NCBI GenBank assembly: GCA_012521295.1
Contig: JAAYMS010000107.1
Span: forward strand, 35,641 to 99,640
DNA from: Bacillota bacterium
Lineage (GTDB): Bacteria > Bacillota > Limnochordia > Darwinibacteriales > Darwinibacteriaceae
Direction: 5' to 3'
Length of the DNA: 64,000 nucleotides
In this document: in pieces, positions 2,161 through 60,629 of the stretch
Layout of the letters: every line of letters begins with the position of its first letter
How positions within the stretch are numbered: the stretch's first letter is position 1
Notes under the pieces: generated by a model
The model's input: only the letters and a program-made list of their open reading frames with translations
Told to the model about the DNA's origin: nothing
Database searches by the model: none
Program-made: the position numbers and the translations under genes

Positions 2161-2170
2161 GAGGTGGACG

Positions 2171-20439: not shown

Positions 20440-20457
20440 GGTGAAAGGGTGCCATTG

Positions 20458-25679: not shown

Positions 25680-25683
25680 TTGT

Positions 25684-26652
25684 ATGACACCGGATGTGTT
25701 TCGCCAGACAGAAATTGCTGTCATCTGGGATTTCGACAAGACTCTCATCCCTGGGTACATGCAGGAACCACTGTTCAGGTACTACCGAGTTGATCCTGAT
25801 CAGTTTTGGCGCGAAGTACGCTTCCTTCCGCAGTACCTCAAGGAGCAGGGTGCAGAGCTTGTTTCAGAAGACAGCATCTATCTCAACCATATTCTGACCT
25901 ATGTGCGAGCAGGCGTCTTTTCAGGCCTGAATAACGCTTTACTTAGGCAGTTAGGTATGGAGCTGAGTTTTTTCCCGGGGCTGCCGGAGTTCTTTTCAGC
26001 AGTCAAGGAACGCATCCACTGCAATCCTCGTTATCAGAAACATGAAATTAGAGTTGAGCACTATGTGGTCAGTACAGGCCTGCGGCAGATGATCTTGGGG
26101 AGTTCAATTGCCAAGTATGTCGATGGAGTTTGGGGATGTGAATTCGTTGAACACCTACCTGGGCCCGGTTTTCTAAGTAAAACCCCGACCGTTGTGGAGA
26201 ACGAAAAGCGGGTCATCCGAGATATTGCTTATGTACTGGACAACACGACCAAAACGCGGGCTATTTTCGAGATTAACAAAGGTGTCAATAAGTTTCCTGA
26301 AATAGATGTGAACAGCAACATACCCAAAGATGATCGCCGCATTCCGTTTGAGAACATGATATACATCGCCGATGGCCCGAGTGATGTACCGGTGTTTTCG
26401 CTGATTAACCAAAATGGCGGCAGAACCTTTGCCGTCTATCAAAGAGGCTCCGATGAAGGGTTTAGACAGGCGGTAGAGCTGCAGCGGCAGGGTAGAGTCC
26501 AAGCCTTCGGCGAGGCGAACTATGAGCCCGAGACTCTCACCTACATGTGGATTATGCATGCGGTGGAGGATATTGCGGGCAATATAGTGAAAAGAAGAGA
26601 AGCTGCACTGCAGACAAAAGTGGGCAAGCCACCTCGTCATCTCGAGGATTAG
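25684..26652 (+). CDS. HAD superfamily hydrolase (DxDxT type)
   Basis: Motif I WDFDKTL and a late DG motif (IADGPSD). ATG at 25684 follows GAGGAGTG. The upstream extension to 25582 is rejected. Confidence 0.55.
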   Translation: MTPDVFRQTEIAVIWDFDKTLIPGYMQEPLFRYYRVDPDQFWREVRFLPQYLKEQGAELVSEDSIYLNHILTYVRAGVFSGLNNALLRQLGMELSFFPGLPEFFSAVKERIHCNPRYQKHEIRVEHYVVSTGLRQMILGSSIAKYVDGVWGCEFVEHLPGPGFLSKTPTVVENEKRVIRDIAYVLDNTTKTRAIFEINKGVNKFPEIDVNSNIPKDDRRIPFENMIYIADGPSDVPVFSLINQNGGRTFAVYQRGSDEGFRQAVELQRQGRVQAFGEANYEPETLTYMWIMHAVEDIAGNIVKRREAALQTKVGKPPRHLED

Positions 26653-47281: not shown

Positions 47282-47312
47282 AGGACCGCTGGTTATCCAG
47301 CGGTCCTTTTTT
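47282..47312. terminator. bidirectional intrinsic terminator
   Basis: Hairpin aggaccgctgg-ttat-ccagcggtcct followed by T6. Confidence 0.8.
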
Positions 47313-47317
47313 GCGGT

Positions 47318-48661
47318 CTAGTTAATGGGATAAGCGTGAAAAGAGGCGACCCGCCACCCAGTTGGTTCTGCAGCCAGTTCTAAATCGATGGCAACATCCG
47401 TTCGGGGCGAGTGTCTTACAAGGATCGTTGCCCGAAACTCTCTTGGATTAGTGACAATCACCTGCCAAGGTTCTTCTTTGTTGAGTCCCTGAAACAAACT
47501 GACTGCTATCGCGCGCTGCGCTGGATCAGGCAAACCCAGCAATTCTTCAATGACCTCACGGTCCACGGCAGCTGCCTCTTGAAGTTCTCTGACGTAACCC
47601 TTTATAGAATCAATCAAGCCCTGCGGTGCAGCAGGTTGATGCGGATGCATTGTAAATCTCTGCAGTTCCCACCCATCTGCTATCTTAATCCAAACCATGA
47701 AAGCATCGTAGAGTGGTTGCCCGCCGCTGATCATTATCGTGGTTAGGGTTCCGTCTCTCTCGGTAATCTCCAGGTTCGTAATCTGGCTCTCTAGCGGAAG
47801 CACTGCAGAGGGGATGTTCTTTAAGTAATCAACGAGTCCTTGTTTCCTTAGTTCTGCGCCTATATGGGCGGTAAGGAAATCCACGTTCCGGGCAGAGACT
47901 GCTTCATCCCACCGTACTATCAAGTTGCTTAGCTCCCCAGCCGGCCCATCGCTTCTGACTGCAAGCGAGATGGGTGGTGCAGGGGGTTCTGCGCTTGGAA
48001 TCGGTTCGGCAGCTGGGGGCTCTGGTATTGATTCGGCCTGTGCTGGTTCTACCTGCATTGGTTCTATTTGTGCCAGCTCTGTTTGGGCTGGTTCCGGGGA
48101 TGGGGCTTCTTCATCGGGGAACGGTGGCGGTTCTGCAGGCGCAATTGGTTCCTTAACGATTTGAACCTTGTTGATATCCAAATCGGACTGCGTCGATAAG
48201 ACCAAGACTGGGTACGAATCTTGTGGCTGATAAAGGTGCCAATCATCAGGATGCTGGATGAAGAATTGCGAGACTTCCACCGGTATGGAGAACTCAGGGA
48301 ACCAAAGGCTGTCGCGGCCTAGAGTAAGGGGATCATTTTGCAAGGCGAGAAAACCTTCGTAGGCAAGATGAAGTTCCCTTGCTGAACCGTACTCTCTTAA
48401 ACGGACTGTGACTACAGTTCCCAAAAAACCTCGGTCTATACTGTAATCCTCAATACCCTCGGTCCACAAGACTGTCACCTGAGCACCAGGGAACAGCCTC
48501 AGTGAAAACTGAGGGCCGGCCGGGTTTATCGTGACCTGCCCATCGACTCGTAGAAACCCGCTGTCTGGCATAATAAAAGCTTGGATTTGGGCATGGGCTA
48601 GGGTCGAGGCGCAGAGGAATGCAGCGCAGGCAACTAAAACCCCAAGCAACCGGTTATGCAT
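47318..48661 (-). CDS. secreted hypothetical protein with Pro/Glu/Ala-rich repeat linker
   Basis: Signal peptide MHNRLLGVLVACAAFLCASTLAHA. A central run of about 70 aa of EPAQ/EPxx repeats. No family recognised. Confidence 0.5.
   Translation of the reverse strand: MHNRLLGVLVACAAFLCASTLAHAQIQAFIMPDSGFLRVDGQVTINPAGPQFSLRLFPGAQVTVLWTEGIEDYSIDRGFLGTVVTVRLREYGSARELHLAYEGFLALQNDPLTLGRDSLWFPEFSIPVEVSQFFIQHPDDWHLYQPQDSYPVLVLSTQSDLDINKVQIVKEPIAPAEPPPFPDEEAPSPEPAQTELAQIEPMQVEPAQAESIPEPPAAEPIPSAEPPAPPISLAVRSDGPAGELSNLIVRWDEAVSARNVDFLTAHIGAELRKQGLVDYLKNIPSAVLPLESQITNLEITERDGTLTTIMISGGQPLYDAFMVWIKIADGWELQRFTMHPHQPAAPQGLIDSIKGYVRELQEAAAVDREVIEELLGLPDPAQRAIAVSLFQGLNKEEPWQVIVTNPREFRATILVRHSPRTDVAIDLELAAEPTGWRVASFHAYPIN
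47930..48170. repeat. low-complexity coding repeat (encodes the PEPAQ-type linker of the minus-strand gene)
   Basis: The DNA shows imperfect tandem ggttc/ggctc-rich units. The plus-strand ORFs at 47925-48164 and 47974-48156 are artefacts of this repeat. Confidence 0.6.
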
Positions 48662-48673
48662 TTTGATTCCTCC

Positions 48674-49126
48674 TTATACCGAACGCTGCCCGTCCTTTGC
48701 ATTGAGAGCTAGACGCATCAGACGGTGCGGTATGCCAGCATCGTCGAAAATATCGCCTTCAGCCGCAAAACCCAGGCGTTCATAGAACCCAATAGCACGA
48801 AGCTGGGCACCTAGAACCGCTTCATGAAAGCCTTCACTTTCAGCCCACCGAATCATATGCTCGACCAGCTTGAATCCGATGTGCTGACCACGGTATTCGG
48901 GCAGAACTGCAATTCGTCCTAGTTTGGCTTGATGGCCCAAGGATACCACACGGCCCGTTCCAACCATTTGGCCGTTGACAAAGGCTCCGAAGTGCTGGGC
49001 AATAGCGTCGTATTGATCCCTTTCTTCTTCGATGGGAACTTGCTGCTCTTCGACAAATACCCGAATACGAATTGCCATTGCTTGATCAAATTCCGACGTA
49101 GTAATTGGACGGCAGATGATTTCCAA
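48674..49126 (-). CDS. GNAT family N-acetyltransferase
   Basis: QHIGFKLVEHMIRWA acetyl-CoA motif. It is divergent from the fusion gene. Confidence 0.7.
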   Translation of the reverse strand: MEIICRPITTSEFDQAMAIRIRVFVEEQQVPIEEERDQYDAIAQHFGAFVNGQMVGTGRVVSLGHQAKLGRIAVLPEYRGQHIGFKLVEHMIRWAESEGFHEAVLGAQLRAIGFYERLGFAAEGDIFDDAGIPHRLMRLALNAKDGQRSV

Positions 49127-49204
49127 CCTAGTTTTCCCTCGCTTTACAGGACTTAATCTATCTCGATCTTAGCTTATTTCGAGAATGATGTCCACACAGT
49201 TAGA

Positions 49205-49259
49205 TTGTATTTCCTTGATCGAATTGGTATAATAAACCGTGTGCACAAAAATGTGTACA
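49205..49259 (+). promoter_or_regulatory. sigma-A-type promoter (TTGTAT-17-TGgTATAAT) with two tandem palindromic boxes TGTGCACA / TGTGTACA at the predicted transcription start
   Basis: -35 at 49205-49210, extended -10 at 49225-49233. Boxes at 49240-49247 and 49252-49259. The ATG at 49280 follows AAGGGGG. Confidence 0.55.
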
Positions 49260-49279
49260 ACAGCTCAAGGGGGTACATC

Positions 49280-51925
49280 ATGCATCCATATATTGAATAT
49301 GTGAATCCACATCTAGGTAAGCGTTTGGTGCAGATTGGCCTTGATAAGCGGTTCGTCCGTGGAAACGGCAGTCGGCTGTTCGATGCCGATGGGGTAGAGT
49401 ATCTAGACTGTATCGCTGCCTATGGCGCTCTCCCCTTTGGATACAATCCGCCCCTGATTTGGGAAGCAGTCAATGCTGTACAGGCTAGTTCGGAGCCTAG
49501 TTTTATCCAACCATCCATGTTGGAAGCTGCTGGAAGGCTGGCGGAGGCTTTAATTAACGCGGCACCTGCGGGGATGGCTTACGTGACATTCGTAAACAGC
49601 GGTGCTGAGGCAGTCGAGGCGGCTGTGAAACTCTGCCGCGCCAAAACGGGTAAACTAGGAATTCTGTCTACAAAGAACAGTTTTCACGGCAAGACCTTGG
49701 GTGCATTATCCGCTACTGGGAACCCATCCTATCAGGATGCCTTTGGTGCACCACTGCCCGGGTTCGCTCACATTCCATATGGTGATGTGCAGGCTCTCGA
49801 AAGCTATCTTGCGGAGCATGCCCACGAGACGGCAGCGTTCATCATTGAGCCTATCCAAGGTGAAGGCGGCATTGTCGAGCCTCCCGAAGGCTATCTTAGG
49901 GCTGTACAAGAGATCTGCAGCTCCTATGGAGTATTGACTATTTTCGACGAGATTCAGACCGGCCTCGGCCGCACGGGTTATTTGTTTGCCTGTGAACGCG
50001 AAGGCGTTACTCCCGATGTGATGGTGCTTGCAAAAGCCTTGGGCGGTGGTTTGGTGCCTGTGGGAGCGGTCTTGTGTAAAGCGGAAGTATACACCGAGGA
50101 TTTCGGTCATAAACATTCGTCAACTTTCGCCGGAAACACCTTAGCCTGCCGCATCGGGCTGAGAGTGATGGAGATTCTTACAGAGAATGATCAGGCACTT
50201 GTGAAAGAAATCCGGAGAAAAGGCGAGCGTCTCAAGGGGCTTCTCCTTGAAGTCGCTGAGCGGTACCCACAGATCATCAGAGGAATTCGTGGCCAGGGCC
50301 TCATGCTGGGTGTAGACTTCGGACATGACAAGGATGTCTATCCCGACAGTCTGCTTGGCATCTTGGCGGAGCAAGAGTTCCTCACGCCTCTTATTGCTTC
50401 ATACCTGCTTAATACAGAGAAAGTGAGGGTGGCGCCTACTCTGAATGGGGCTAGTGTCATCAGGATCGAACCACCTTTGATCATCACCGATGACGAGATT
50501 GAACGGATAGCTAGTGCCGTAGAGAACGTTGCTAAGATGCTTGCGCAGCGCAATACTGCCAATTTCTTGGGGCATCTCATCGGCTATACTCCCGAGGAGC
50601 CTGCGGAGCCTGTAAGCGAGCCGGCTTCGCCAGCAGCCGAACCGATAGCGCAGGAAGACGATGGCCGTTTTGCCTTCTTGGTTCATCCAGTAGATTTGGC
50701 GAATTACAGTGATTTCGATGCTAGCCTGGCTGTGTTTTCCGAGGAACAGCTGGCAGACTTAAGCTCCCGCTGGAATGATCTAGTGGAACCCTTCGTGGTC
50801 GGTACCACTCGCATCGAAAGCAATACAGGAGAAACAGCCTATGGAGATTTTATCTGCCTGCCGCGAACGGCTGATGAGTTCTTAGCGATGGATCGGGATC
50901 AGGCGATTGCCGAAATTAGACAGGCGATCGAGCTCGCCAAAGAACGTGGCGCTCGCCTGGTTGGGCTGGGAGCCTATACTTCAGTGGTCACGATGGGAGG
51001 ACGCTCTCTCGTGCCCTATGTCGATGTCGCCTTGACGACAGGCAACAGCTATACAGTGGTATCAGGGATCGAAGCAGTAACTACGGCCGCTCAGAGCCTT
51101 GATGTGACACTGGAAACAAGTACTGCCGCCGTGTTGGGCGCAAGCGGTGCTATTGGCAAGGCGCTCTCGACTCTCCTTGCCGAAAGTGTACAGGAGCTGA
51201 TTCTCATCGGCAATCCGCGGAATGCGGGTAAGAGCGAGTTCCGTATGCGCAAGGTCGTCGTGCAAATCTTACAGCATCTCCGTCAATTGGCCGACAAGGG
51301 GCACGAGTTCGCAGCGGGTACCATCGGTGACTACGTCCGGAAACGCCAGGATCTACCGTCGGCAGATGCTGACTTGAGTGAATGGCTGGATTACGTCGAA
51401 ACTCTTCTTATGGAGGATGCTCCGTTCGTAATTACGACAGACGCAGCGGCACATCTACCTAAAGCAGATCTGATTGTAGCAGCAACCAGCAGTCCCGAAG
51501 CGCTGATAACTCCCGCTATGCTGAAGTGGGGGGCCGTGATCTGCGATCTATCTCGCCCGGCCAATGTCAGCCGGGAAGTCCTGCACGAAAGGCCTGATGT
51601 GCTGGTCATAGATGGCGGTGTTGTCGAAGTACCCAATCGCCCAGATCTGGGATGGAACTTCGGCTTTGAGCAGGGCCAAGCATACGCCTGCATGTCAGAG
51701 ACGATGATGCTGGCCTTGGAGAAACGCTATGAAAACGCAAGTCTGGGTGCAGACTTGAACATCGAGCACATCCAATACCTGCGAGGACTGGCTGATAAGC
51801 ACGGCTTTGCTCTGGCTGGCCTGCGCAGCTTCGATAGACCCTTAACATCCGAAGAACTTGAACGGGTGCGGAGACTACGGGCCAAAGGTGCAGATACTGA
51901 AGACAAAATAGCACAAAATGCATAA
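49280..51925 (+). CDS. bifunctional fusion: class-III PLP aminotransferase (N-terminal) + acyl-ACP-reductase (AAR)-like NAD(P)-binding reductase domain (C-terminal)
   Basis: Residues 1 to about 440 are ArgD/GabT-like (GNSFHGKT, EPIQGEGG, FDEIQTGLGRTG, PLP Lys in AKALGGG). A Pro/Glu/Ala linker follows. Residues from about 470 to the end resemble cyanobacterial AAR (as recalled from memory) block by block: GLGAYTSVV, TTGNSYT, GASGAIGKA Rossmann motif, DLIVAATSSP, IDGGVVEV, QAYACMSETMMLALE. No Cys is found at the position of the AAR catalytic Cys. Confidence 0.6.
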   Translation: MHPYIEYVNPHLGKRLVQIGLDKRFVRGNGSRLFDADGVEYLDCIAAYGALPFGYNPPLIWEAVNAVQASSEPSFIQPSMLEAAGRLAEALINAAPAGMAYVTFVNSGAEAVEAAVKLCRAKTGKLGILSTKNSFHGKTLGALSATGNPSYQDAFGAPLPGFAHIPYGDVQALESYLAEHAHETAAFIIEPIQGEGGIVEPPEGYLRAVQEICSSYGVLTIFDEIQTGLGRTGYLFACEREGVTPDVMVLAKALGGGLVPVGAVLCKAEVYTEDFGHKHSSTFAGNTLACRIGLRVMEILTENDQALVKEIRRKGERLKGLLLEVAERYPQIIRGIRGQGLMLGVDFGHDKDVYPDSLLGILAEQEFLTPLIASYLLNTEKVRVAPTLNGASVIRIEPPLIITDDEIERIASAVENVAKMLAQRNTANFLGHLIGYTPEEPAEPVSEPASPAAEPIAQEDDGRFAFLVHPVDLANYSDFDASLAVFSEEQLADLSSRWNDLVEPFVVGTTRIESNTGETAYGDFICLPRTADEFLAMDRDQAIAEIRQAIELAKERGARLVGLGAYTSVVTMGGRSLVPYVDVALTTGNSYTVVSGIEAVTTAAQSLDVTLETSTAAVLGASGAIGKALSTLLAESVQELILIGNPRNAGKSEFRMRKVVVQILQHLRQLADKGHEFAAGTIGDYVRKRQDLPSADADLSEWLDYVETLLMEDAPFVITTDAAAHLPKADLIVAATSSPEALITPAMLKWGAVICDLSRPANVSREVLHERPDVLVIDGGVVEVPNRPDLGWNFGFEQGQAYACMSETMMLALEKRYENASLGADLNIEHIQYLRGLADKHGFALAGLRSFDRPLTSEELERVRRLRAKGADTEDKIAQNA

Positions 51926-51981
51926 ACAATAACTCCTCCACATACGATTAGATGAGCATTTGTGTGGGGGGATCGGCCTTG

Positions 51982-52725
51982 ATGGGACAATGGCGCGTTG
52001 CAGTGGCAGGCGGCACCGGGAGAACGGGAAGAGAAATCGTTCGATACCTAAACGCCGAAGAAGGCATTGAGGTGGTTGGGGTAGTGGCTCGATCCCTTGC
52101 AGGCCAGTCCATGTCAGTGGTATTACCTGGACTAAAGCGCCATATTCCCATATATGGAGATCTTGCGGAGCTCTTAAGGATTGATCCCCCCCACGTCTTG
52201 GTCGATTTCACCACACCGCAGGCGGCTAAGCGTCACTTCTTCATGTGTATAGAACGGGGGATTAATCCCATTATTGGAACCACAGGGTTTACAGATGCGG
52301 ATATAGCAGAGTTTGCTGAGGCCTGCGCGGCATTCAAGATTGGGGCCGCGGTTATCCCTAATTTCTCCATTGGCGCACTGGCTCTCAGGCTTGCCGCACA
52401 AGTCGTAGCTGGTATGCTGGACGATGTGGCCGTGTTGGAAACTTACCCTCATTCGAAAAGAGATCTGCCTTCAGGTACTTCCCAGCGTTTGGCCGCGCTA
52501 CTGGCCACAGGCGGGCCTGACAACCCCAAAGCGGTACCGATTCACAGCGTCAGGCTGGACGGTGTGCTGCCCCAGCAGGAAGTGCGGTTTGGTGGGCAGG
52601 GTGAGATGGTTGCCATTTCTCACCTGGTCAGTGACCGGGCCTGTTTCGGCAGGGGAGTGGCGATGGCCGTTAAGAAGATAGCAAAATTCCCCACCCTGAT
52701 TCAGGACCTAGATTTCTTTATATAA
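51982..52725 (+). CDS. DapB-like reductase (4-hydroxy-tetrahydrodipicolinate reductase family, divergent)
   Basis: N-terminal VAVAGGTGRTGREI, GTTGF and PSGTS blocks. The catalytic region reads ETYPHSKRDLPSGT, whereas the canonical DapB motif as I recall it is EAHHRHKVDAPSGT. ATG at 51982 follows GGGGGG. Confidence 0.6.
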   Translation: MGQWRVAVAGGTGRTGREIVRYLNAEEGIEVVGVVARSLAGQSMSVVLPGLKRHIPIYGDLAELLRIDPPHVLVDFTTPQAAKRHFFMCIERGINPIIGTTGFTDADIAEFAEACAAFKIGAAVIPNFSIGALALRLAAQVVAGMLDDVAVLETYPHSKRDLPSGTSQRLAALLATGGPDNPKAVPIHSVRLDGVLPQQEVRFGGQGEMVAISHLVSDRACFGRGVAMAVKKIAKFPTLIQDLDFFI

Positions 52726-52843
52726 CCGGGAAAGTCCCCGGTTTTTTGCTTTACAGGGAAAGGCAGGAACTTAGTGTAACTGCGGAGAAGTAGCACTCTC
52801 GACTCGGTTTCCAGTATCGGGTTATATAGAGGAGGACTAGAAG

Positions 52844-54109
52844 TTGAAGCTTGCATTGCATGGTGGCGAACCCGTTCGGACACGCCCCTGGGTTTCGAAA
52901 TTTATCGGCGGTGAAGAGCTGGGCCAGGAGGAGCGCGAGAGGGTACTGCGCGTCCTGGAAAAGAAGCGCATTTTCAGGTATCTCCCTGAAGGGTTGGACG
53001 AATCAGAAACGGCTCAACTGGAGAAGGAATATGCTCGCTTCGTGGGTACTCGCTATGCTTTGGCAGTCAATTCTGGCACATCGGCTCTAATCTGTGCGCT
53101 GGTTGCAGCTGGAATTGGCCCAGGAGATGAGGTTCTGATACCCGCTTATACGTGGGTGGCTACGGCAGGGGCCGTCGTGTCGATCGGAGCTGTACCAGTA
53201 CTCTGCGAAATAGACGAATCCTTGACCATTGATCCAGAAGATATGGAAAAGAGAATCACGCCTTATACCAAGGCTGTTATTGTGGTGCACATGCGCGGCA
53301 TGTCTTGTGACATGGACCGCATCATGGCAGTGGCACGGGCACACGATTTAAGGGTAATTGAGGATGTTGCACAGGCCAATGGAGGAAGCTATAAGGGTAG
53401 ACGCCTCGGAAGTTTCGGTGACGTAGGCTGCTTTAGCCTGCAGCAATCGAAGGTGATTACTACTGGCGAAGGCGGTATGGTTGTCACTGATTCGGAGGAG
53501 ATATGGCAGCGGGCGGTGATATATCACGACGGTGCCATGTATCAATTCCGCTTCACCGAACGTAAGGTACCGGCCTTTGCTGGTCAGAATTACCGCCTAA
53601 CCGAGCTGCAGGCAGCCCTGTCTTTGGGGCAGATTGAAAAAATGCCTGAGCTGATTAAGGCAACGCGGGCTGTAAAAAGAAGAGCTCTTGAGGTACTTGC
53701 AGGCCAGACTGGCATTTACTTTGCTCCGGCGTTCGGCAGTGAGCGGGATCTTGGTATCAGCTTGGTTTTCTACACTGAGACAGCTGAGCAGGCCGAATTC
53801 TTGGAAAAGGCTATTTCGGCTGAGGGCATCCCAGCACAGCGTATTTACAATCCGGAGCTGAACGATCAACATGTCTATGTCAACTGGGAGTTCTTAATGA
53901 ACAAACGCGATCCTTGGGGTGGAAGTTTCCCGTGGGATCAGCCTTTCTACAAGGGAAGTGTTGATTACAACGCCGACTCTTGTCCAAGGACTCTCGATAT
54001 CTTGAGCAGGGCAGTCCAGATTCGCCTCAATCATTTGATCACTGACGAAGACCTAGCTGACCTGAAGCAAGCAGTTGCCAAGACGGTTTCGGCAATGCCC
54101 ACATCTTAA
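52844..54109 (+). CDS. DegT/DnrJ/EryC1/StrS family PLP aminotransferase
   Basis: Motifs NSGTSAL, PAYTWVA and SFSLQQSKVITTGEGG (PLP Lys). TTG start 7 nt after AGAGGAGG. Confidence 0.8.
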   Translation: MKLALHGGEPVRTRPWVSKFIGGEELGQEERERVLRVLEKKRIFRYLPEGLDESETAQLEKEYARFVGTRYALAVNSGTSALICALVAAGIGPGDEVLIPAYTWVATAGAVVSIGAVPVLCEIDESLTIDPEDMEKRITPYTKAVIVVHMRGMSCDMDRIMAVARAHDLRVIEDVAQANGGSYKGRRLGSFGDVGCFSLQQSKVITTGEGGMVVTDSEEIWQRAVIYHDGAMYQFRFTERKVPAFAGQNYRLTELQAALSLGQIEKMPELIKATRAVKRRALEVLAGQTGIYFAPAFGSERDLGISLVFYTETAEQAEFLEKAISAEGIPAQRIYNPELNDQHVYVNWEFLMNKRDPWGGSFPWDQPFYKGSVDYNADSCPRTLDILSRAVQIRLNHLITDEDLADLKQAVAKTVSAMPTS

Positions 54110-54176
54110 GGCAGGATGTGGGGTTTGTCACAGGCGCTTTTTGCCTGTTTTGATTGTTGTAGGAAGGGGTATAGAA

Positions 54177-55781
54177 ATGCTGTTTGACTCGCTTTATTAT
54201 CCGTATCCTTCTCGGCGGATGGTGACCTATTCTAATCGCGGCATGGTGGCAACTTCGCAGGCTCTGGCAGCCCAAGCAGGATTGGAGATTCTGAAAAAAG
54301 GTGGGAATGCAGTTGATGCTGCCATCGCCACTGCAGCAGCTCTGACGGTGGTGGAACCCACTTCAAATGGTCTGGGTAGTGATGCATTCGCGATAGTATA
54401 CAGCGGTGGGCAACTTCACGGCTTAAACTCCAGCGGGCCTGCCCCGTCAAGCCTAACCGCCGACAAAGTACGCGCTAAGGGCCATGACGAGATGCCCGCC
54501 TTGGGGTGGTTCCCGGTTACCGTACCCGGTGCAGTAGGCGCCTGGGCGGCACTTTGGCGGAAGTTTGGCTCGCTCTCTTTCGCTGAACTACTAGAACCAG
54601 CCATCTCATATGCAGATGAGGGTTACCCTGTCTCGCCAGTGCTTGCTGAGGGATGGGAAGCATCTTACCGCCGCTATTCTAAGGAAAGCGATCAGCTCTT
54701 TGCCGAGTGGTTTAGAGTATTTGCGCCTCACGGAAGAGCACCGCGGTGCGGCGAAGTATGGCGTTCGCCTGACCATGCTAGAACGCTAAGGCTGATCGCC
54801 GAGTCAGAGGGCGAGGCCTTTTATCGTGGAGAACTAGCTGAAATAATCAGCCGCTACGCAGAAGAAACAGGCGGCTTCATTCGCAGCGCCGATCTGGCTC
54901 GTTTTGAACCACAGTGGGTCGAGCCGCTGTCGGTACGCTATCACGGTTATGATGTCTGGGAACTGCCTCCAAACGGCCAGGGGCTCGTGGCTCTCATCGC
55001 TCTAGGCATCTTGGATGCTTGGGAGTTCGAGAGCAAGGAGGATGTGGACACATACCACAAGCAGATCGAAGCGTTGAAACAGGCCATGACTGTGGCTGGT
55101 GAAGTGATTACTGACCCTGACCATATGCGCCTTGATCCAAAGGTTCTGCTCAGTCCGGATTATCTGGCTGCGCTCCGCAGCCGAATTGGTGAAACCGCAG
55201 GTGAACCCGTCGCCATTGTACCCGAAGATCATGGCACAGTATACTTGGCCGCAGCTGACCAGTATGGCAACATGATTTCATTCATCCAGAGCAACTACAT
55301 GGGCTTCGGTTCGGGCATCGTAGTACCAGACACAGGAATTGCGCTCCAGAACCGCGGGAAAGGCTTTTCGCTTGATCCGGAAAGAGTTAACTATCTTGAA
55401 CCGGGTAAGCGGAGTTACCATACAATTATTCCAGGTTTCTTGACTAGAGACGGCAAGGCTATCGGGCCCTTTGGCGTGATGGGCGGATACATGCAGCCTC
55501 AGGGGCACCTCCAGGTGATGATGAATACGATCGATTTTGGCCTCAATCCTCAGGCCGCTCTTGATGCACCGCGCTGGCAGTGGATGAGGGACAACAGCGT
55601 GGAGCTTGAACAGAGTGTGCCTGAACACATCAAGGCAGCTCTTGTACGCCGAGGGCACAAAGTGACTATTCCTGTAAGCAGTGTTGGGTTCGGGCGAGGC
55701 CAGATCATCTGGCGAGATGATCAAGGTGTTTTGGCAGGTGGAACAGAACCTCGCGCCGATGGGGCCGTGGCTGCTTGGTAG
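54177..55781 (+). CDS. ggt: gamma-glutamyltranspeptidase
   Basis: GGT family motifs (GGNAVDAAIA, catalytic Thr region PGKRSYHT(I)IP). ATG at 54177. The upstream extension to 54075 is rejected. Confidence 0.85.
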   Translation: MLFDSLYYPYPSRRMVTYSNRGMVATSQALAAQAGLEILKKGGNAVDAAIATAAALTVVEPTSNGLGSDAFAIVYSGGQLHGLNSSGPAPSSLTADKVRAKGHDEMPALGWFPVTVPGAVGAWAALWRKFGSLSFAELLEPAISYADEGYPVSPVLAEGWEASYRRYSKESDQLFAEWFRVFAPHGRAPRCGEVWRSPDHARTLRLIAESEGEAFYRGELAEIISRYAEETGGFIRSADLARFEPQWVEPLSVRYHGYDVWELPPNGQGLVALIALGILDAWEFESKEDVDTYHKQIEALKQAMTVAGEVITDPDHMRLDPKVLLSPDYLAALRSRIGETAGEPVAIVPEDHGTVYLAAADQYGNMISFIQSNYMGFGSGIVVPDTGIALQNRGKGFSLDPERVNYLEPGKRSYHTIIPGFLTRDGKAIGPFGVMGGYMQPQGHLQVMMNTIDFGLNPQAALDAPRWQWMRDNSVELEQSVPEHIKAALVRRGHKVTIPVSSVGFGRGQIIWRDDQGVLAGGTEPRADGAVAAW

Positions 55782-55796
55782 AGGAGAGGGTTAGCA

Positions 55797-56597
55797 ATGC
55801 GGTTCTGGAAGTATCACGGGATCGGCAATGATTTTATCCTGGTAGAAGACTTTGAAGGCAGATTGCTCGGCGAAGCCCCCCGCATCGCCACTCAAGCCTG
55901 CCACCGGAACTTCGGTATCGGCGGTGATGGCTTAGTGCTGATAACTCAGAACGACGGTATGTATACTATGCGCATCTTCAACTCCGATGGCTCCGAAGCC
56001 GAGATGTGCGGCAATGCCATCCGCTGCGTTGCCCATCACCTCATTGATAAAGGGTACGCAGTCGGTGAGACGGTCATCATAAACACCATCAGTGGTGCAA
56101 AAAAGGTGTATCGAGAGCGCGACCAGTATGCTGTCGACATGGGCGAGCCACGATTTACTGCTGCAGAACAGCTTCCAGATGGAATCCAAGAAGTAGAGGC
56201 CTTAGGAGGCCAGTGGAAGATTCACCCTGTCTCGATGGGCAATCCCCACGGAGTAGTATTTGTAGATGAGCTCGCGGCTCTTCCCTTTGAGCACTTAGGG
56301 CCCCTGCTGGAGCGGCATCCTATTTGGCCAGCGATGGCCAATATTGAGTTTGTCCAGGTTGAAAACAGCAGCTCTCTAAGGGTTAAGGTTTGGGAGCGGG
56401 GAGTAGGGCCGACGCTCGCGTGTGGTACAGGTGCCTGCGCTGCGGCGGTCTGGTCGGCTCGCTTGGGCACAACCGGGCGCCGCGTTGCTGTCCATCTTCC
56501 GGGTGGGAGTCTAGAAATCCGCTGGGAAGATGATAATCACGTTTGGATGATTGGCCCTGCTGTTGAGGTCTTTACTGGTTCATATCATGGGAAATGA
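55797..56597 (+). CDS. dapF: diaminopimelate epimerase
   Basis: GNDFILV N-terminus and the two catalytic Cys motifs (CGNAIRC, ACGTGACA). Confidence 0.85.
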   Translation: MRFWKYHGIGNDFILVEDFEGRLLGEAPRIATQACHRNFGIGGDGLVLITQNDGMYTMRIFNSDGSEAEMCGNAIRCVAHHLIDKGYAVGETVIINTISGAKKVYRERDQYAVDMGEPRFTAAEQLPDGIQEVEALGGQWKIHPVSMGNPHGVVFVDELAALPFEHLGPLLERHPIWPAMANIEFVQVENSSSLRVKVWERGVGPTLACGTGACAAAVWSARLGTTGRRVAVHLPGGSLEIRWEDDNHVWMIGPAVEVFTGSYHGK

Positions 56598-56714
56598 GTT
56601 CGCATGGAGCACCAGCGAAAGGGATTTTGCCGAATCCAAAGAACTTTAGGATCATGTGGCTGTAAGTAGTTAGCACACAGTGCAAAATTGATAAGCAAAA
56701 GGTGGAAGAGAAAG

Positions 56715-57428
56715 ATGTATGTACTAGCCCACAGAGGATACTCAGGTAAAGCACCCGAAAACACAATGGCCGCCTTTGAACTAGCATTAGAGGCTGGAGC
56801 AGACGGCCTGGAGCTCGATGTACACATTACTAAAGATGGGGAAGTTGTAGTCATTCACGACGATACCATCGACCGTACCACAAATGGAAGTGGTAGAGTT
56901 GAGGACTATACTTATGCCGAGCTAGCTGAATTTGATGCTGGCAGCTGGTTTGGTGCTGAGTTCAAAGGAGAACGCCTGCCTACCCTGTCTCAGGTATGCG
57001 AGCTCATCAAGGGCACCGATAAGATTTTCAACGTAGAACTCAAGGCTGGTGCCAATTTCCAGGCGTTGACAGAAAAGGTATCGGAGATTATCAAGGCTTA
57101 CGACCTTGTACCCAATACCATTATTTCCTCCTTCAACCACTATGCGCTCGCATATTCTAAGCAGGTGAACCCCAATCTGCGTACAGCTATTCTATACACC
57201 GCAGCTCTGTATGCACCTTGGGAGTATGTGAAGATGATCGGTGCTGACGCACTGCATCCGAAACACGTGACAGTGGTGCCATTTATTGTGGAAGAAGCGC
57301 ACAAGCACGGGTTGATGGTCAATCCATATACTGTTGATGAGCCACATGACATTGAGCGTATGCTCAAAGCTGGAGTAGACAGTGTGATCACAAACCAAGT
57401 GACACGCGTTAAAGAGTTCATTAAGTAA
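56715..57428 (+). CDS. glycerophosphodiester phosphodiesterase
   Basis: GDPD motifs (HRGYSG, PENTMAAFELA, ELDVHITKDGEVVVIHD). Confidence 0.85.
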   Translation: MYVLAHRGYSGKAPENTMAAFELALEAGADGLELDVHITKDGEVVVIHDDTIDRTTNGSGRVEDYTYAELAEFDAGSWFGAEFKGERLPTLSQVCELIKGTDKIFNVELKAGANFQALTEKVSEIIKAYDLVPNTIISSFNHYALAYSKQVNPNLRTAILYTAALYAPWEYVKMIGADALHPKHVTVVPFIVEEAHKHGLMVNPYTVDEPHDIERMLKAGVDSVITNQVTRVKEFIK

Positions 57429-57430
57429 GA

Positions 57431-57458
57431 ATAGGCTGCCAAACGGCAGCCTATTTGC
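57431..57458. terminator. bidirectional intrinsic terminator
   Basis: Hairpin ataggctgcc-aaac-ggcagcctat followed by a TTGCTTT tract. Confidence 0.7.
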
Positions 57459-57465
57459 TTTAGAT

Positions 57466-58467
57466 CTACATTAAGTCTTTCAGGTCGCTTGTGGCTACTG
57501 CTTTAACTAAGTCCACGCACGCCTCTACGTCTCTGATATCAACCATCTCTGAAGCGGTGTGTACGTAGCGGCAGGGGATAGAAATAGTGCCAGCCAAGAT
57601 ACCATCTCTTGTTAAATGGATAGCACCCGCATCTGTTCCACCTCTTTCAAGGACCTCGAACTGATGGGGGATGTTGTTATCTTCGGCGAGCTTCGTGAGA
57701 AAGGCTTTAACCTTCGGATTAGTGATCATCGAAGAGTCTTTGACCTTGATAGCAGCTCCTTTACCAAGTGAGACCTCCATGCGCGGGCCTTCGGGTACGT
57801 CACCAGTGAGGGTCACGTCTAAAGCAATACCAAGGTCCGGATTGATGGTGTAGGCAGACGTACGCGCCCCCCTCAGTCCAACCTCTTCTTGGGTGGAGAA
57901 TACGAAGTACAGAGTATTGGGTGTATCCTGAAGCTGTTTAATTGCCTCCACCAGGATCGCACAACCGATGCGGTCATCCATACTCTTCGCCACTAGGCGG
58001 TTTCCGAGATCGGTGAATTCACGATGGATGATGCCAAACTCCCCAACCTTGACCTTGGCTTCGGCTTCTTCTTGTGATTCGGCGCCGATGTCAACATAGA
58101 GCTTATCGAGATTGAGATCCTTTAGATCGCCTTTTTCCTTGTAAATCACACCGATAGTACCATTGGAAAAGCGGACTCTGTTGCCAATCAACGTTTCTGG
58201 AGCTAATCCACCCACATTAGAGAACCGCAAGAAACCTTTTTCATCGATGTGGGTCACGATGATTCCAATCTCATCGGCATGCGCAGAAAACATGATGCGT
58301 TTGCCTTCAGGCGCTGTACCTCGTTTTACGGCAATGAGGTTGCCCATAACATCCGTGGAGATTTCGTCGACATGATCCTTAATCATATCAGCAATGACTT
58401 CGCGAACCTGGTCTTCATATCCTGATGGGCCAAAGGCCTCGGTTAGGGTGCGAATGATCTCTTTCAT
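57466..58467 (-). CDS. M42 family aminopeptidase (TET/FrvX-like) paralog 1
   Basis: M42 metal-ligand motifs (HADEIG, DDR, EEVGLRGA). Confidence 0.8.
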   Translation of the reverse strand: MKEIIRTLTEAFGPSGYEDQVREVIADMIKDHVDEISTDVMGNLIAVKRGTAPEGKRIMFSAHADEIGIIVTHIDEKGFLRFSNVGGLAPETLIGNRVRFSNGTIGVIYKEKGDLKDLNLDKLYVDIGAESQEEAEAKVKVGEFGIIHREFTDLGNRLVAKSMDDRIGCAILVEAIKQLQDTPNTLYFVFSTQEEVGLRGARTSAYTINPDLGIALDVTLTGDVPEGPRMEVSLGKGAAIKVKDSSMITNPKVKAFLTKLAEDNNIPHQFEVLERGGTDAGAIHLTRDGILAGTISIPCRYVHTASEMVDIRDVEACVDLVKAVATSDLKDLM

Positions 58468-59489
58468 TAGTTGCCCTCCCTTTCTTGGAGATCTTGGAGA
58501 TATACACTAGTCAACCGGAATGCGGCTTCGTAGTCCTTCTTACTCATTACAGAAGCGGCAGAATGGATGTAGCGGCAGGGAACGGCAATGACAGCAGCCT
58601 TGGTTCCGCCCGCTGTTAGCTGAATCTGGCCCGCGTCTGTTCCACCAGTGTTAGTGCGGCGGATCTGATAAGGGATGTTGTGTTCTTCTGCTAGTTCAAT
58701 CAGCCTCCGCACAAGAGGTGGGTGGGTGATGACTGTTCGATCCATGATGGTGATCGCAGGCCCTTTGCCCACTGATGTGGCGTGCTTGTGTGGATCAGAA
58801 CCAGGGACGTCCGAAGCGGTAGTCCCTTCAAGGACAATGGCTACATCCGGCTGGATTTGATAGGCCGCCACACCGGCACCTCTTAAGCCAACCTCTTCCT
58901 GAACTGTAAATACGCCGTAAACAGGAATGTCATAATTCTGCTTTAAGAGCTCGATGAGTAGAGCGCATCCGACCCTATCGTCCAGCGCCTTTGCTTTGAT
59001 CTTATCTTGACCGAACTCTTCGAACTTAGTGGCGAAATAAGCGCAATCCCCTAGATTGACGACTTTTTCCGCTTCTTCTTGGCTCTTGGCACCGATATCA
59101 ATTGCGAGTTCGTCGATGCTTAGAGGGCGCTGCCTTTCTTCTGGCCTCTGCAGGTGAATGGGCTTGCTGCCGATGACGCCAGGAACCTTCTTTTCTCCCA
59201 CCAAGACGGTCTTGGCCACCAACACTCTCGGATCGATGCCGCCAATTGGCCTGAACCGGAGTAGACCGTTCTTCTCAATTCCAAGAATCATTAAAGCAAC
59301 TTCATCCATGTGAGCTGCCAACATCACCTTCGGCCCCGGGGCGGAAGGGTTCTTAACCGCAATTAAGTTGCCTAAAGCGTCTGTACGGATTTCATCTACG
59401 TAGCCTTCGATTTCAGAGCGGATCAGAGCACGAACTTCTCCCTCTTGACCTGGAGCACCGCAAGCTTCAGTCAGTTTTCTTAAAAGCAC
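58467..59489 (-). CDS. M42 family aminopeptidase paralog 2
   Basis: M42 motifs (HMDEV, DDRVG, EEVGLRGA). Directly abuts paralog 1. Confidence 0.8.
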   Translation of the reverse strand: MLLRKLTEACGAPGQEGEVRALIRSEIEGYVDEIRTDALGNLIAVKNPSAPGPKVMLAAHMDEVALMILGIEKNGLLRFRPIGGIDPRVLVAKTVLVGEKKVPGVIGSKPIHLQRPEERQRPLSIDELAIDIGAKSQEEAEKVVNLGDCAYFATKFEEFGQDKIKAKALDDRVGCALLIELLKQNYDIPVYGVFTVQEEVGLRGAGVAAYQIQPDVAIVLEGTTASDVPGSDPHKHATSVGKGPAITIMDRTVITHPPLVRRLIELAEEHNIPYQIRRTNTGGTDAGQIQLTAGGTKAAVIAVPCRYIHSAASVMSKKDYEAAFRLTSVYLQDLQEREGN

Positions 59490-60541
59490 TTCAATCCCTC
59501 CACAAATTCGTTGTCCAATCCGGCAATGAAGAAGGCCATCAGACGCCCAGTGAGCTTGACGTCGTTGTAATCAAGTGTTTCGATGGGCGTGTGCATGTAC
59601 CGTAGTGGGATAGACAGGAGAATTGTTGGAATTCCTGCCTGAGTAACCTGAATCGCGTAAGCATCGGTCCCTCCTGGATAGGGAGATGGGTCAAGGGAAT
59701 ATGGGATTTTCCATTCCTTGGCCACTTCTACCATACGCTTATGTAGGGTAGGGTGCACATGGGGGCCGAGGCCGATTGCGGGCCCGCCTCCCAGCTTTAT
59801 GGTTTGGAATTCCTGCAGGCCGGGCTGGTCTCCGAAGCCCACGTCAATTGCAATCCCCACATCAGGCACGATTCCGTAGGTGCTTGTAATCGCCCCGCGC
59901 AGGCCAACTTCCTCTTGAACCGTGGCGACGGCATATACTTCAGCAGAGAAATTGAGGTCATCGAGTGCCTTGAGGCATTCAAGCATGGCTGCCACACCGG
60001 CTCGGTCGTCAAATGCCTTACCGGCCATGAATGAGCCTTGGAGATTCCAGCTGGTTTGGTTGATCGTCGCTAGATCACCAACTGCCACTTTGCCTTCCAC
60101 TTCTTCGGCACTGTCAAATCCGATATCAATAAATAGGTCCTCCAGTTTCACTGCCTGCCGCTGCTCATCAGGACTCTGCACATGCGGCGGTTTAGCCCCG
60201 ATCACTCCACGGTAAGTCTCTTTGCCATGGACTGTCACTTCCTGGCCCAATAGGACTCGTTGATCGAAGCCTCCAATTGTGCTGAAACGGAGGAATCCTT
60301 CCTTTTCAACCTTAGTAATAATTAAACCGATTTCGTCCATATGAGCTGCCAACATGACCCGGGGTACCTTTTGGTCAGATTGAGCCTTGCCTTTCTTAAG
60401 CATAATGAGATTCCCCAGCGTATCGCGGCGAAACTCATCAACCCAGGGGCATGCTTCCTGAATCTGGTCTGCAATCTGGTCTTCATACCCTGAAACTCCA
60501 GAATTGGATGCGATATCCTGGAACAACTGCTTGATGTCCAT
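59480..60541 (-). CDS. M42 family aminopeptidase paralog 3
   Basis: M42 motifs (HMDEIG, DDRAG, EEVGLRGA). ATG at 60541 follows GGAGGG. The longer ORF to 60589 is rejected. Confidence 0.75.
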   Translation of the reverse strand: MDIKQLFQDIASNSGVSGYEDQIADQIQEACPWVDEFRRDTLGNLIMLKKGKAQSDQKVPRVMLAAHMDEIGLIITKVEKEGFLRFSTIGGFDQRVLLGQEVTVHGKETYRGVIGAKPPHVQSPDEQRQAVKLEDLFIDIGFDSAEEVEGKVAVGDLATINQTSWNLQGSFMAGKAFDDRAGVAAMLECLKALDDLNFSAEVYAVATVQEEVGLRGAITSTYGIVPDVGIAIDVGFGDQPGLQEFQTIKLGGGPAIGLGPHVHPTLHKRMVEVAKEWKIPYSLDPSPYPGGTDAYAIQVTQAGIPTILLSIPLRYMHTPIETLDYNDVKLTGRLMAFFIAGLDNEFVEGLKCF

Positions 60542-60629
60542 CAGCGTCCCTCCTTGTGCGTAATTTGTACTATTATTTCTTTTGAACAAAGGAAAACCCT
60601 CCCACCAACACGAAATAGAGAGGATATTG

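Follow-up and report, generated by a model that had tools for sequence, protein, structure and literature searches.

To our knowledge, the proteins described so far in which a transaminase is fused to a thioester reductase come from clusters for pigments and alkaloids in Proteobacteria and Streptomyces; as biocatalysts they are attractive for the conversion of acids to amines. In the tambjamine YP1 pathway of Pseudoalteromonas tunicata, TamH converts a TamA-bound acyl-ACP to a fatty amine through an aldehyde (PMC9594044), while PigE, from the MAP branch of prodigiosin synthesis in Serratia, forms a cyclic imine by thioester reduction and transamination of the resulting aldehyde (PMC8341465, the PigE revision). 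For KecF of the koreenceine cluster of Pseudomonas koreensis, PMC6498172 proposes reduction of an ACP-bound oxo-acyl chain, transamination, and spontaneous cyclisation to a tetrahydropyridine, which is also a cyclic imine. DapB has a substrate site with the consensus E(L/A)HHxxKxDAPSGTA; PMC11489326, which gives this consensus and its residue roles, quoting Scapin 1997, names His159 as the general acid that protonates dihydrodipicolinate and His160 as a ligand of the C2-carboxylate, takes the role of Lys163 from the same work, and states that mutation of His159 cuts the activity of E. coli DapB dramatically.

The window analysed here (the whole stretch of 64,000 nucleotides of Bacillota DNA) contains a gene of this fusion type followed by a DapB paralog, within a block of seven genes that a sequence-only reading had joined into one amine-forming pathway. 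Our preferred reading, to which we assign a probability of roughly one half, is that the block is a mosaic, in which a two-gene module (fusion and DapB paralog) lies next to separate, unrelated chromosomal genes. The features of the block are as follows.

48674-49126, minus strand: small GNAT N-acetyltransferase (PF00583, E 1.8e-18)
49205-49233, plus strand: promoter-like site of the fusion gene, TTGTAT, 17 nt, extended -10 TGgTATAAT (-10 at 49228-49233), read off the sequence
49280-51925 (ORF 49205-51925), plus strand: fusion enzyme gene, 881 aa, start set by the ribosome-binding site (RBS) AAGGGGG
51982-52725 (ORF 51952-52725), plus strand: DapB paralog of Tyr type, 247 aa (PF01113, PF05173)
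52724-52743, to 52753 with the T-run, plus strand: terminator-like hairpin AACCGGG-aaagtc-CCCGGTT followed by TTTTTGCTTT, at the stop of the DapB-like gene
52844-54109, plus strand: DegT/DnrJ/EryC1-family aminotransferase, 421 aa (PF01041), with a strong RBS of its own, GAGGAGG
54130-54148, to 54156 with the T-run, plus strand: terminator-like hairpin ACAGGCG-ctttt-TGCCTGT followed by TTTGATTG, between DegT and GGT, 21 nt past the DegT stop
54177-55781 (ORF 54075-55781), plus strand: GGT-family protein, 534 aa (PF01019), start set by the RBS GGAAGGGG
55797-56597, plus strand: DapF (TIGR00652), beginning 15 nt past the GGT stop
56715-57428 (maximal ORF from 56688), plus strand: cytoplasmic GDPD/GlpQ-like, UgpQ-like protein (PF03009), start chosen by the RBS AGGTGG
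57431-57463 (hairpin 57431-57454), no strand assigned: hairpin with a 10-bp stem, ATAGGCTGCC aaac GGCAGCCTAT, then TTGCTTT, between the convergent GDPD and M42 peptidase genes

Start codons were revised from ribosome-binding sites read off the sequence, the GDPD start at ATG 56715 being only probable. The revised DapB-like start (ATG 51982) gives a protein of 247 aa, the length of the database protein P0001, and the overlap between DegT and GGT disappears once GGT starts at ATG 54177. The resulting intergenic gaps, from the fusion to GDPD, are 56, 118, 67, 15 and ~117 nt. At the level of gene content the sequence-only reading was accurate: ORFs and domain matches confirm all seven genes and their predicted families, the six genes 3' of GNAT are co-directional, with GNAT divergent from the fusion gene, and profile matches reveal no asd, lysC, dapA, dapL, dapD, lysA or Ddh gene inside the 64-kb window.

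The fusion enzyme is encoded by one ORF, with the transaminase preceding the reductase. The N-terminal half (residues ~25-420) is a class-III PLP aminotransferase domain (PF00202, E 5.4e-94, ORF residues 51-440) with a putative Schiff-base lysine, Lys252, assigned by the motif LAKALGGG alone; its PDB matches are PigE (4ppm, E 3.8e-90) and putrescine aminotransferases (E 1e-84 to 1e-90). The C-terminal half (residues ~463-865) is an acyl-ACP-reductase-like thioester reductase, matching the N-terminal domain of PigE (E 8e-36 to 1.2e-35) and the acyl-ACP reductase (AAR) 6jzq (E 3.5e-18 to 4e-18). The catalytic cysteine is kept, YAC804MSE aligning to FAC294FAE of AAR (Cys294 in the S. elongatus enzyme), as is the GxxGxxG motif, G620ASGAIG aligning to GATGDIG. 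These domain matches and motifs support the assignment, made from sequence, of an aldehyde-forming thioester reductase fused to a transaminase, in agreement with the earlier proposal. The PigE model NF053554 matches the fusion in several stretches, with 576 bits against an equivalog cut-off of 850 bits. The reductase domain was also considered as an ortholog of cyanobacterial-type AAR and rejected (TIGR04058, 92 bits against an equivalog cut-off of 449.7).

Length and domain order are shared by ~60 full-length homologs, and 254 tblastn-confirmed stretches in a species-level genome collection match the fusion, including stand-alone AAR-like reductase genes of Armatimonadota. Among Limnochordia-like Bacillota the fusion gene is chromosomal and broadly conserved. 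Neither the window nor the related loci have an ACP, adenylation, ketosynthase, ThDP or PigD-like gene in the 10 kb to each side of it, which counts against the preferred reading. In some distant loci acpS occurs near the fusion, but inside the common acpS-nnr-alr cluster.

The protein encoded directly 3' of the fusion has both DapB domains (PF01113, E 2.7e-25; PF05173, E 8.8e-19) and an intact NAD(P) motif (GGTGRTG). Alignments with solved structures and homologs show that its substrate motif, E-T-Y155-P156-H-S-K159-R-D-L-P-S-G-T-S (ETYPHSKRDLPSGTS), departs from the DapB consensus at the positions of His159 and His160. Across the Tyr-type clade (~10 protein clusters and 8 metagenome loci surveyed), Tyr at 159 is invariant, His160 is replaced by Pro, Leu or Ser, and K163 and PSGT are kept in all members, whereas all canonical DapB sequences in the same alignment keep His159. 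Because the His159/His160 pair is replaced, the protein is probably not a canonical DapB. The earlier identification of a DapB-like reductase thus stands as to homology, and the replaced pair fits an amino-aldehyde or amino-ketone that closes to the cyclic imine suggested as its substrate; the opposing case, also raised at the time, that DapB and DapF are both ordinary lysine genes, fits DapF (see below) but probably not the DapB-like protein, with its motif altered at 159/160. Public records name the gene 4-hydroxy-tetrahydrodipicolinate reductase.

All Tyr-type genes with enough flank lie directly 3' of a fusion gene; beyond them the neighbours vary, with DegT in some loci and ABC sugar transporter genes in others, and the fusion/DapB-like pair is the only one that persists while downstream neighbours change. 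The DapB-like gene is confined to loci of a single Limnochordia clade, which have upstream synteny (ZnuABC, RluD) in common as well, so that inheritance alone could explain part of this strict adjacency. In a neighbour-joining tree of the fusion proteins the DapB-like gene is patchy within one clade, and lineages that lack it retain the fusion, and DapF too where the flank shows, which suggests an accessory gene rather than a housekeeping DapB. The fusion in turn does not need the DapB-like protein, since ~45 of 60 full-length fusion genes have no such partner.

These data bear on an alternative in which the adjacency is historical and carries no functional link: the Tyr-type protein would be a working 4-hydroxy-tetrahydrodipicolinate reductase, with Tyr in place of the general-acid His and DapF as its pathway companion, and the fusion would act independently, for instance by converting acyl-ACP or acyl-CoA to a fatty amine or an omega-amine. 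The score of the DapB-like protein with TIGR00036 (151.8 bits) exceeds the equivalog cut-off of 122, the nucleotide motif, K163 and the PSGT loop are all retained, DapF lies 3 kb away, neither the 64-kb window nor the 22-kb flanks around related loci showed a second dapB, and most genomes have the fusion without the DapB-like gene. We nevertheless regard this alternative as rather unlikely. Both histidines are replaced in every clade member, including His159, whose mutation strongly lowers the activity of E. coli DapB according to PMC11489326; the clade is tiny, and the sister group retaining DapF yielded no ortholog above 41% identity. The gene is, moreover, always tied to the fusion, while asd and lysC are the neighbours of the two His-His-type DapB homologs examined (P0049, P0090), joined by dapA in one case and by dpaAB in the other.

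The sequence-only reading had described a tightly spaced, co-directional block flanked by terminators at 47.3 and 57.4 kb. The flanks are as described: hairpins occur at 47282-47307, confirmed by a terminator scan, and at 57431-57454, seen by eye and absent from the scan output. An uninterrupted unit between them is not confirmed, as the hairpins with T-runs at 52724 and 54130 lie inside the block. The first has the same stem with another loop at the same place in two relatives (L044, 13449-13468; L001, 13434-13454), and the second has a longer equivalent in L044 (14974-14998). Hairpins after the DapB-like and DegT genes that recur in relatives predict a split into three units: fusion-DapB-like, DegT, and GGT-DapF-GDPD. 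The intrinsic terminators are pattern matches, and read-through into DegT is possible. The promoter-like site of the fusion gene was omitted by a consensus promoter scan (its -35 matches at only 3 of 6 positions); L009 has TTGAAA-17-TATAAT with TG (11/12) at the equivalent place. We infer that the fusion and DapB-like genes are co-transcribed.

Synteny was counted in the 33 species-level loci that extend 6 kb or more 3' of the fusion. DegT, DapF and GDPD lie beside the fusion in all 9 loci at 63-75% fusion identity, where DegT is directly 3' of the fusion gene and both GGT and the DapB-like gene are missing, and in 0 of 22 loci below 63%. An unrelated M42 peptidase is present in 8 of the same 9 loci, so that DegT, DapF and GDPD track the fusion no further than the M42 peptidases do and represent background synteny. 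GGT is beside the fusion only at identities of at least 75%, i.e., in the closest relatives, and four of these (L001, L044, L088 and L090) have the full gene set. Insertions between block members include a 476-aa ORF in L001 and three genes in L007. In the distant locus L084 the order fusion, DegT, GGT, DapF survives with aconitase, isocitrate dehydrogenase, ETF, MatE and other genes interspersed (~10 kb of TCA-cycle/ETF genes), and a class-I/II aminotransferase gene follows DapF. GNAT, which matches no NCBIfam model at cut-off, is the divergent neighbour of the fusion in 7 of the 15 related loci whose fusion identity reaches 58% and in 0 of 31 below, giving it a weak link to the module.

The DegT-family protein (PF01041, E 3.8e-83; putative PLP lysine, Lys203) falls in a KdnA-like subgroup; its best solved relative, the Kdo8N transaminase 5k8b, aligns along the full length of the protein, C-terminal extension included (E 5.6e-65; query residues 22-414), and some sources annotate its homologs as Kdo8N transaminase. 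Homologs with ~50% identity stand alone, near sugar genes, in Paenibacillus and Lederbergia, which are monoderm genera not known to have Kdo, and no KdnB or Kdo/LPS gene adjoins DegT in the window or in loci L084-L086. The GGT-family protein (PF01019, E 2.8e-151) scores 333 bits with TIGR00066, under the cut-off of 357.85, and matches PDB 2nlz, a 'cephalosporin acylase', over nearly its full length (E 2.5e-222). It is an Ntn hydrolase with a putative nucleophile, Thr354, and has no signal peptide, features that identify it as a cytoplasmic 2NLZ-type protein; we know of no established physiological substrate for this type. DapF, with 282 bits for TIGR00652 (cut-off 114.65) and both catalytic cysteines (MC71GNA and AC209GTG, in the motifs SDGSEAEMCGN and LACGTG), has the sequence of a canonical diaminopimelate epimerase. 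The GDPD protein matches PF03009 (E 4e-55) and, under the 264-bit cut-off, PRK09454 (190 bits).

The coherent pathway first proposed would have all six or seven genes in one operon, leading from an amino-aldehyde through a cyclic imine to a reduced N-heterocycle or diamine, with a second transamination by DegT, gamma-glutamyl processing by GGT, epimerisation by DapF and N-acetylation by GNAT. Co-directional genes with short gaps, the complete set in the four closest relatives and the order still recognisable in L084 are what such an operon predicts. Terminator-like hairpins nevertheless stand at internal gene ends (the first shared with L044 and L001, the second with L044), block members are separated by insertions in L001, L007 and L084, and GGT and the DapB-like gene are missing from the 63-75% group. 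The comparison of gene order that had been suggested as a check shows the whole block to be no better conserved than the flanking M42 peptidases, and its members include a fully canonical DapF, a GGT of the widespread 2NLZ type and a DegT whose homologs stand alone. We consider the single operon highly improbable, and the wider seven-gene pathway should not be carried forward. A variant DAP/lysine route, in which the DapB-like protein forms tetrahydrodipicolinate, DegT replaces DapL (LL-DAP aminotransferase), DapF epimerises, and the fusion supplies a semialdehyde or acts like ArgD/DapC, is highly improbable: the order reductase, aminotransferase, epimerase is that of the aminotransferase branch of the DAP pathway and the window has no DapL, DapD or Ddh gene, but the DapB-like protein lacks the catalytic His pair, the three genes are set apart by terminators, all 9 of 9 sister loci retain DegT-DapF while lacking the DapB-like gene, DegT homologs of ~50% identity occur alone near sugar genes (Paenibacillus, Lederbergia) and the closest solved relative is a sugar-aldehyde transaminase, and the aminotransferase that follows DapF in L084 could be the real DapL.

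Under the preferred mosaic reading, the module would be a unit (49280-52725) started by a separate extended -10 promoter and closed by a terminator of its own. With Cys804 and NAD(P)H, the C-terminal domain of the fusion would form an aldehyde from an acyl-thioester, either acyl-ACP or acyl-CoA, and the N-terminal PLP domain would convert this aldehyde to a primary amine; TamH does the same, and KecF and PigE are proposed to do so. Given a gamma- or delta-oxo group on the acyl chain, the amine would close spontaneously to a 1-pyrroline or 1-piperideine (cf. PigE, KecF); chemistry of the KecF type would thus supply the DapB-like reductase with a cyclic-imine substrate. The DapB paralog, which keeps the DapB fold but not the His159/His160 pair, would reduce this different cyclic imine to a saturated N-heterocycle. 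DegT, GGT-DapF and GDPD would stand beside the module through inherited gene order, with likely roles as a KdnA-like aminotransferase, a cytoplasmic 2NLZ-type GGT-like hydrolase, a housekeeping DAP epimerase and a phosphodiesterase, respectively.

More tentatively, and with considerable doubt, we suggest that the pair in the host clade may be an undescribed two-gene route of Limnochordia-like Bacillota, outside secondary-metabolite clusters. The TamH/KecF-type enzyme would take a common oxo-acyl or dicarboxylyl thioester to an amino-carbonyl compound, and the Tyr-Pro DapB-fold enzyme would be a dedicated cyclic-imine reductase yielding a pyrrolidine- or piperidine-type product (e.g., an alkyl-piperidine, or a pipecolate- or proline-like acid).

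The fusion architecture described here occurs as a conserved gene on the chromosome throughout a class of little-studied, uncultured Bacillota of anaerobic digesters, one clade of which has it coupled to a DapB paralog whose active site has been rebuilt. If this pair makes and reduces a cyclic imine, imine-reductase function would have been added to the DapB fold, transaminase-reductase fusions would have a new physiological role, and the physiology of these bacteria would be expected to include an unknown amine or N-heterocycle. Annotators should also take note that the DapB-like gene passes an NCBIfam equivalog threshold and that its public name may be wrong.

Among known systems, KdnA (8-amino-3,8-dideoxy-D-manno-octulosonate transaminase, 5k8b) is the closest solved relative of DegT, although its KdnB and Kdo partners are absent alongside it here. 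2NLZ, like the GGT-family protein, has no signal peptide and conserves the Ntn-hydrolase Thr, and the latter falls under the gamma-glutamyltransferase cut-off of TIGR00066. TamH, likened here by its published description, matches the fusion in its two domains, in their order and in having GxxGxxG and a catalytic Cys, but is encoded in a 19-gene cluster adjoining TamA (adenylation-ACP), its substrate donor, whereas the fusion has no carrier or ligase gene nearby. PigE (4ppm) is the best-scoring solved homolog of both fusion halves; its order is reversed, with the reductase N-terminal, and its partners PigD and PigB have no counterparts here. KecF is an aminotransferase-reductase didomain with the same order as the fusion, and its partners, a type II PKS (KecA-E) and ketoreductases, are not found near the fusion; the consulted passages of PMC6498172 describe no DapB-like gene for koreenceine clusters. 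DapB (EC 1.17.1.8) shares with the DapB-like protein both Pfam domains, the nucleotide motif, Lys163, the PSGT loop and a passing TIGR00036 score, but the DapB-like protein differs in having Tyr for His159 and Pro, Leu or Ser for His160, in being tied to the fusion rather than to asd, lysC or dapA, and in its small, patchy distribution.

The seven genes that the sequence-only reading had listed are all present with the families it named, based on ORF listing and Pfam/NCBIfam scans of the window. They lie at 48674-57428, with a minus-strand GNAT gene followed by plus-strand genes for a fusion protein (N-terminal class-III aminotransferase, C-terminal acyl-ACP-reductase-like domain), a DapB-like protein, a DegT-family aminotransferase (DegT), a GGT-family protein (GGT), DapF and a GDPD-type phosphodiesterase (GDPD). 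For each of these proteins the sequence makes the fold clear. Four start codons (fusion, DapB-like, GGT and GDPD) were revised by reading the intergenic DNA. The principal features are as follows.

48674-49126, minus strand: GNAT gene (Pfam/NCBIfam, ORF listing)
49225-49233, plus strand: TGgTATAAT, extended -10 promoter-like site of the fusion gene, read from the sequence
49280-51925, plus strand: fusion gene, start ATG 49280, preceded by AAGGGGG; 881 aa
51982-52725, plus strand: DapB-like gene, start ATG 51982; 247 aa, equal in length to database protein P0001
54177, plus strand: ATG start of GGT, preceded by GGAAGGGG; 534 aa, without signal peptide
56715, plus strand: probable ATG start of GDPD, from intergenic DNA

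The promoter-like site of the fusion gene has a counterpart in the related locus L009, with 11 of 12 consensus positions matched. It lies in the 153-nt divergent region between GNAT and fusion (49127-49279), where it is faced by a minus-strand promoter-like site (TGGACA-17-TAAGAT, 49194-49166) that is found in the same place in loci L044 and L001. A 447-aa ORF without Pfam or NCBIfam match (47318-48661, minus strand) keeps in relatives its position between GDH/GNAT and the fusion gene; it evolves fast (30-54% identity where fusion identity is 61-77%), and its L009 homolog begins with a signal-peptide-like hydrophobic stretch.

The remainder of the window is ordinary chromosome (Pfam/NCBIfam), encoding hut genes, three aminoacyl-tRNA synthetases, PEPCK, G6PD, 6PGD, MalEFG, ZnuABC, glutamate dehydrogenase, three M42 peptidases and TldD/PmbA. 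The histidine-utilisation set (35-4071, plus strand; urocanase, glutamate formiminotransferase, an imidazolonepropionase-like amidohydrolase and formiminotetrahydrofolate cyclodeaminase) has its first gene truncated by the window edge. Also on the plus strand are a DUF6530 protein (20449-20937, E 5e-85) and, between sfsA and an APH-family kinase gene, a 356-aa ORF without Pfam match (25582-26652). Scanning the window for Rfam families and tRNAs gave no match, and thus no riboswitch leader.

Homology to PigE and acyl-ACP reductase (AAR) bears out the proposed pairing of an aldehyde-forming reductase with a transaminase in the fusion protein. The nearest solved structures to its N-terminal half are PigE and putrescine aminotransferases (E 1e-84 to 1e-90), and its C-terminal half matches the N-terminal domain of PigE (E 1.2e-35) and cyanobacterial acyl-ACP reductase (E 3.5e-18). 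The reductase domain carries a GxxGxxG motif (residues 620-626), and Cys804 aligns to the catalytic Cys294 of acyl-ACP reductase. The gene is widespread: a scan of species-level genomes gave 254 tblastn-confirmed stretches, most of them full-length fusion genes in Limnochordia; the rest include stand-alone reductase-domain genes in Armatimonadota. Nearest to the window are genomes of uncultured Limnochordia-like Bacillota of digester origin, fusion identity being 87% for L044 and 78% for ‘Peptococcaceae bacterium 1109’.

Both DapB domains are present in the DapB-like protein, whose TIGR00036 score of 151.8 bits exceeds the cut-off of 122. DapBs share the substrate-site consensus E(L/A)HHxxKxDAPSGTA; its His159 serves as general acid, the C2 carboxylate is bound by His160, and the imine is polarised by Lys163 (PMC11489326). 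The corresponding motif here is ETYPHSKRDLPSGTS. Homolog searches place the protein in a small clade of about 10 protein clusters (48-100% identity), beyond which lie ordinary DapBs at no more than 41% identity. In all members of this clade and in eight further metagenome loci Tyr takes the place of His159 (Tyr-type) and Pro, Leu or Ser that of His160, with Lys163, the PSGT loop and the nucleotide motif retained. The changes at the carboxylate-binding residues suggest that the substrate is unlike dihydrodipicolinate at the C2 carboxylate. The gene is likely misannotated in public records. Literature searches on DapB paralogs as imine reductases and on Limnochordia lysine metabolism found nothing relevant.

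Wherever upstream sequence suffices, the Tyr-type gene lies directly 3' of a fusion gene (the window, L001, L002, L043, L044, L047, L057, L080-L083, L087-L091, L093 and L094), and the genes downstream of the pair differ between loci. We regard a two-gene module of fusion and DapB-like genes as the best-supported reading. The chief alternative takes the DapB-like gene as simply the organism's own DapB, with a historical adjacency to the fusion gene; tblastn with six DapB queries found no canonical dapB in the window and 86 loci, only Tyr-type genes. Canonical (His-His-type) DapBs of Limnochordales, Limnochordaceae and Symbiobacteriaceae were recovered by a search seeded with P0011, the nearest His-His-type protein. 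The three His-His-type homologs that were looked up have lysine-pathway or typical Bacillales contexts (P0049, dapB-dpaAB-asd-lysC, and P0090, dapB-asd-lysC-dapA, both in assemblies outside the fusion loci; P0323, qcr-ypjB-dapB-mgsA in Bacillales), whereas Tyr-type genes sit beside the fusion. In a neighbour-joining tree of fusion proteins, DapB-like-bearing loci are patchy inside one clade, and neighbouring lineages without the gene retain the fusion (L003-L009, L011, L013 and L014; in the L003-L009 group DapF is also retained nearby). This distribution points to an accessory gene that was lost repeatedly.

A pathway comprising all seven genes, as first proposed, is unlikely. The flanking terminators claimed at 47.3 and 57.4 kb are real (47282-47307 and 57431-57454, the latter read by eye), but a single operon is contradicted by internal terminator-like hairpins and by the synteny statistics. 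One hairpin with a T-run coincides with the DapB-like stop (52724-52743, followed by TTTTTGCTTT) and recurs in L044 and L001 with a conserved stem and an altered loop; a second (54130-54148) begins 21 nt past the DegT stop and recurs in L044. Together with gene spacing (15 nt between GGT and DapF), these hairpins predict three units: fusion-DapB-like, DegT, and GGT-DapF-(GDPD).

Genes near the fusion gene, by fusion identity to the window, in the 33 species-level loci whose downstream flank is 6 kb or longer (M42 peptidase is unrelated to the block)
Identity; loci; DapB-like; DegT; GGT; DapF; GDPD; M42 peptidase
>=75%; 2; 2; 2; 2; 2; 2; 1
63-75%; 9; 0; 9; 0; 9; 9; 8
58-63%; 4; 2; 0; 0; 0; 0; 0
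<58%; 18; 0; 0; 0; 0; 0; 0

The expected conservation of gene order does not extend beyond background synteny. Insertions occur within the block (a 476-aa ORF in L001, three genes in L007), and L084, which shares a contig with L014, retains the order fusion...DegT-MatE-GGT-S58 peptidase...DapF interspersed with aconitase, isocitrate dehydrogenase, GntR regulators, ETF and other genes. DegT, GGT, DapF and GDPD are thus neighbours through inherited gene order rather than selection for a cluster. The three tandem M42-family aminopeptidase paralogs (57466-60589, minus strand; 37-43% mutual identity) are all conserved in L001 and the 63-75% group, and L044 has the first alone within the flank covered.

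Two types of fusion neighbourhood occur below 58% identity: a Glucodextran_C membrane protein following acpS-nnr-alr, or an uncharacterised 310-aa protein upstream with lysS downstream. The former, membrane-anchored with an SLH-like binding module, lies just upstream of the fusion in 18 more distant loci (e.g., L022:2891-3844, preceded by the housekeeping cluster). The latter (about 310 aa; L054:8980-9912, also L032, L037, L040, L048, L061, L063, L068 and L078) is directly upstream of the fusion gene, on the same strand, in Limnochordales, and is equally placed ahead of 360-aa acyl-ACP-reductase-like genes that stand alone in Armatimonadota. Pfam, NCBIfam and PDB searches gave no match for it, the window lacks it, and it may be the real conserved partner of the reductase domain.

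None of DegT, GGT and DapF suggests a substrate in common with the fusion enzyme. DapF is canonical (282 bits, cut-off 115, both catalytic cysteines present). The GGT-family protein scores under the gamma-glutamyltransferase equivalog cut-off and resembles, nearly full-length, the cytoplasmic ‘cephalosporin acylase’-type protein PDB 2nlz (E 2.5e-222). DegT is most similar, over its full length, to the Kdo8N transaminase KdnA (E 5.6e-65), and homologs at about 50% identity are solitary near ROK and sugar genes in Paenibacillus and Lederbergia. The 64-kb window lacks asd, dapA, dapL and lysA, as claimed, and also lysC; a DapB-DegT-DapF lysine variant with DegT replacing DapL is unlikely given the KdnA-like sequence, the solitary homologs, the synteny table and L084. 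In L084:1-17266 (PWMW01000057.1) a 389-aa class-I/II aminotransferase follows DapF, a candidate for a genuine LL-DAP aminotransferase (DapL); if it is one, DAP synthesis in the clade would run through the aminotransferase branch.

The first observation is thus partly confirmed, and the pathway idea is partly supported, for the fusion and DapB-like genes only. Domain chemistry in the two-gene module would follow that of characterised homologous enzymes; for substrate, cyclisation and reductase role we infer the following. The fusion enzyme would convert an acyl-thioester to an aldehyde and then an amine, which, given an oxo group on the chain, would cyclise spontaneously to an imine that the Tyr-type DapB paralog could reduce. 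TamH and KecF have the same domain architecture as the fusion. TamH has been demonstrated to convert carrier-bound acyl thioesters via the aldehyde to fatty amines (PMC9594044), and for KecF the proposal is that it reduces and transaminates an oxo-acyl-ACP, with cyclisation of the product to a tetrahydropyridine (PMC6498172); PigE has the permuted domain order (PMC8341465). Unlike those three, the gene here lies near no partner gene for a carrier, ligase or PKS; it encodes a fusion of the TamH/KecF type that stands apart from any biosynthetic cluster and has a remodelled DapB paralog as its companion.
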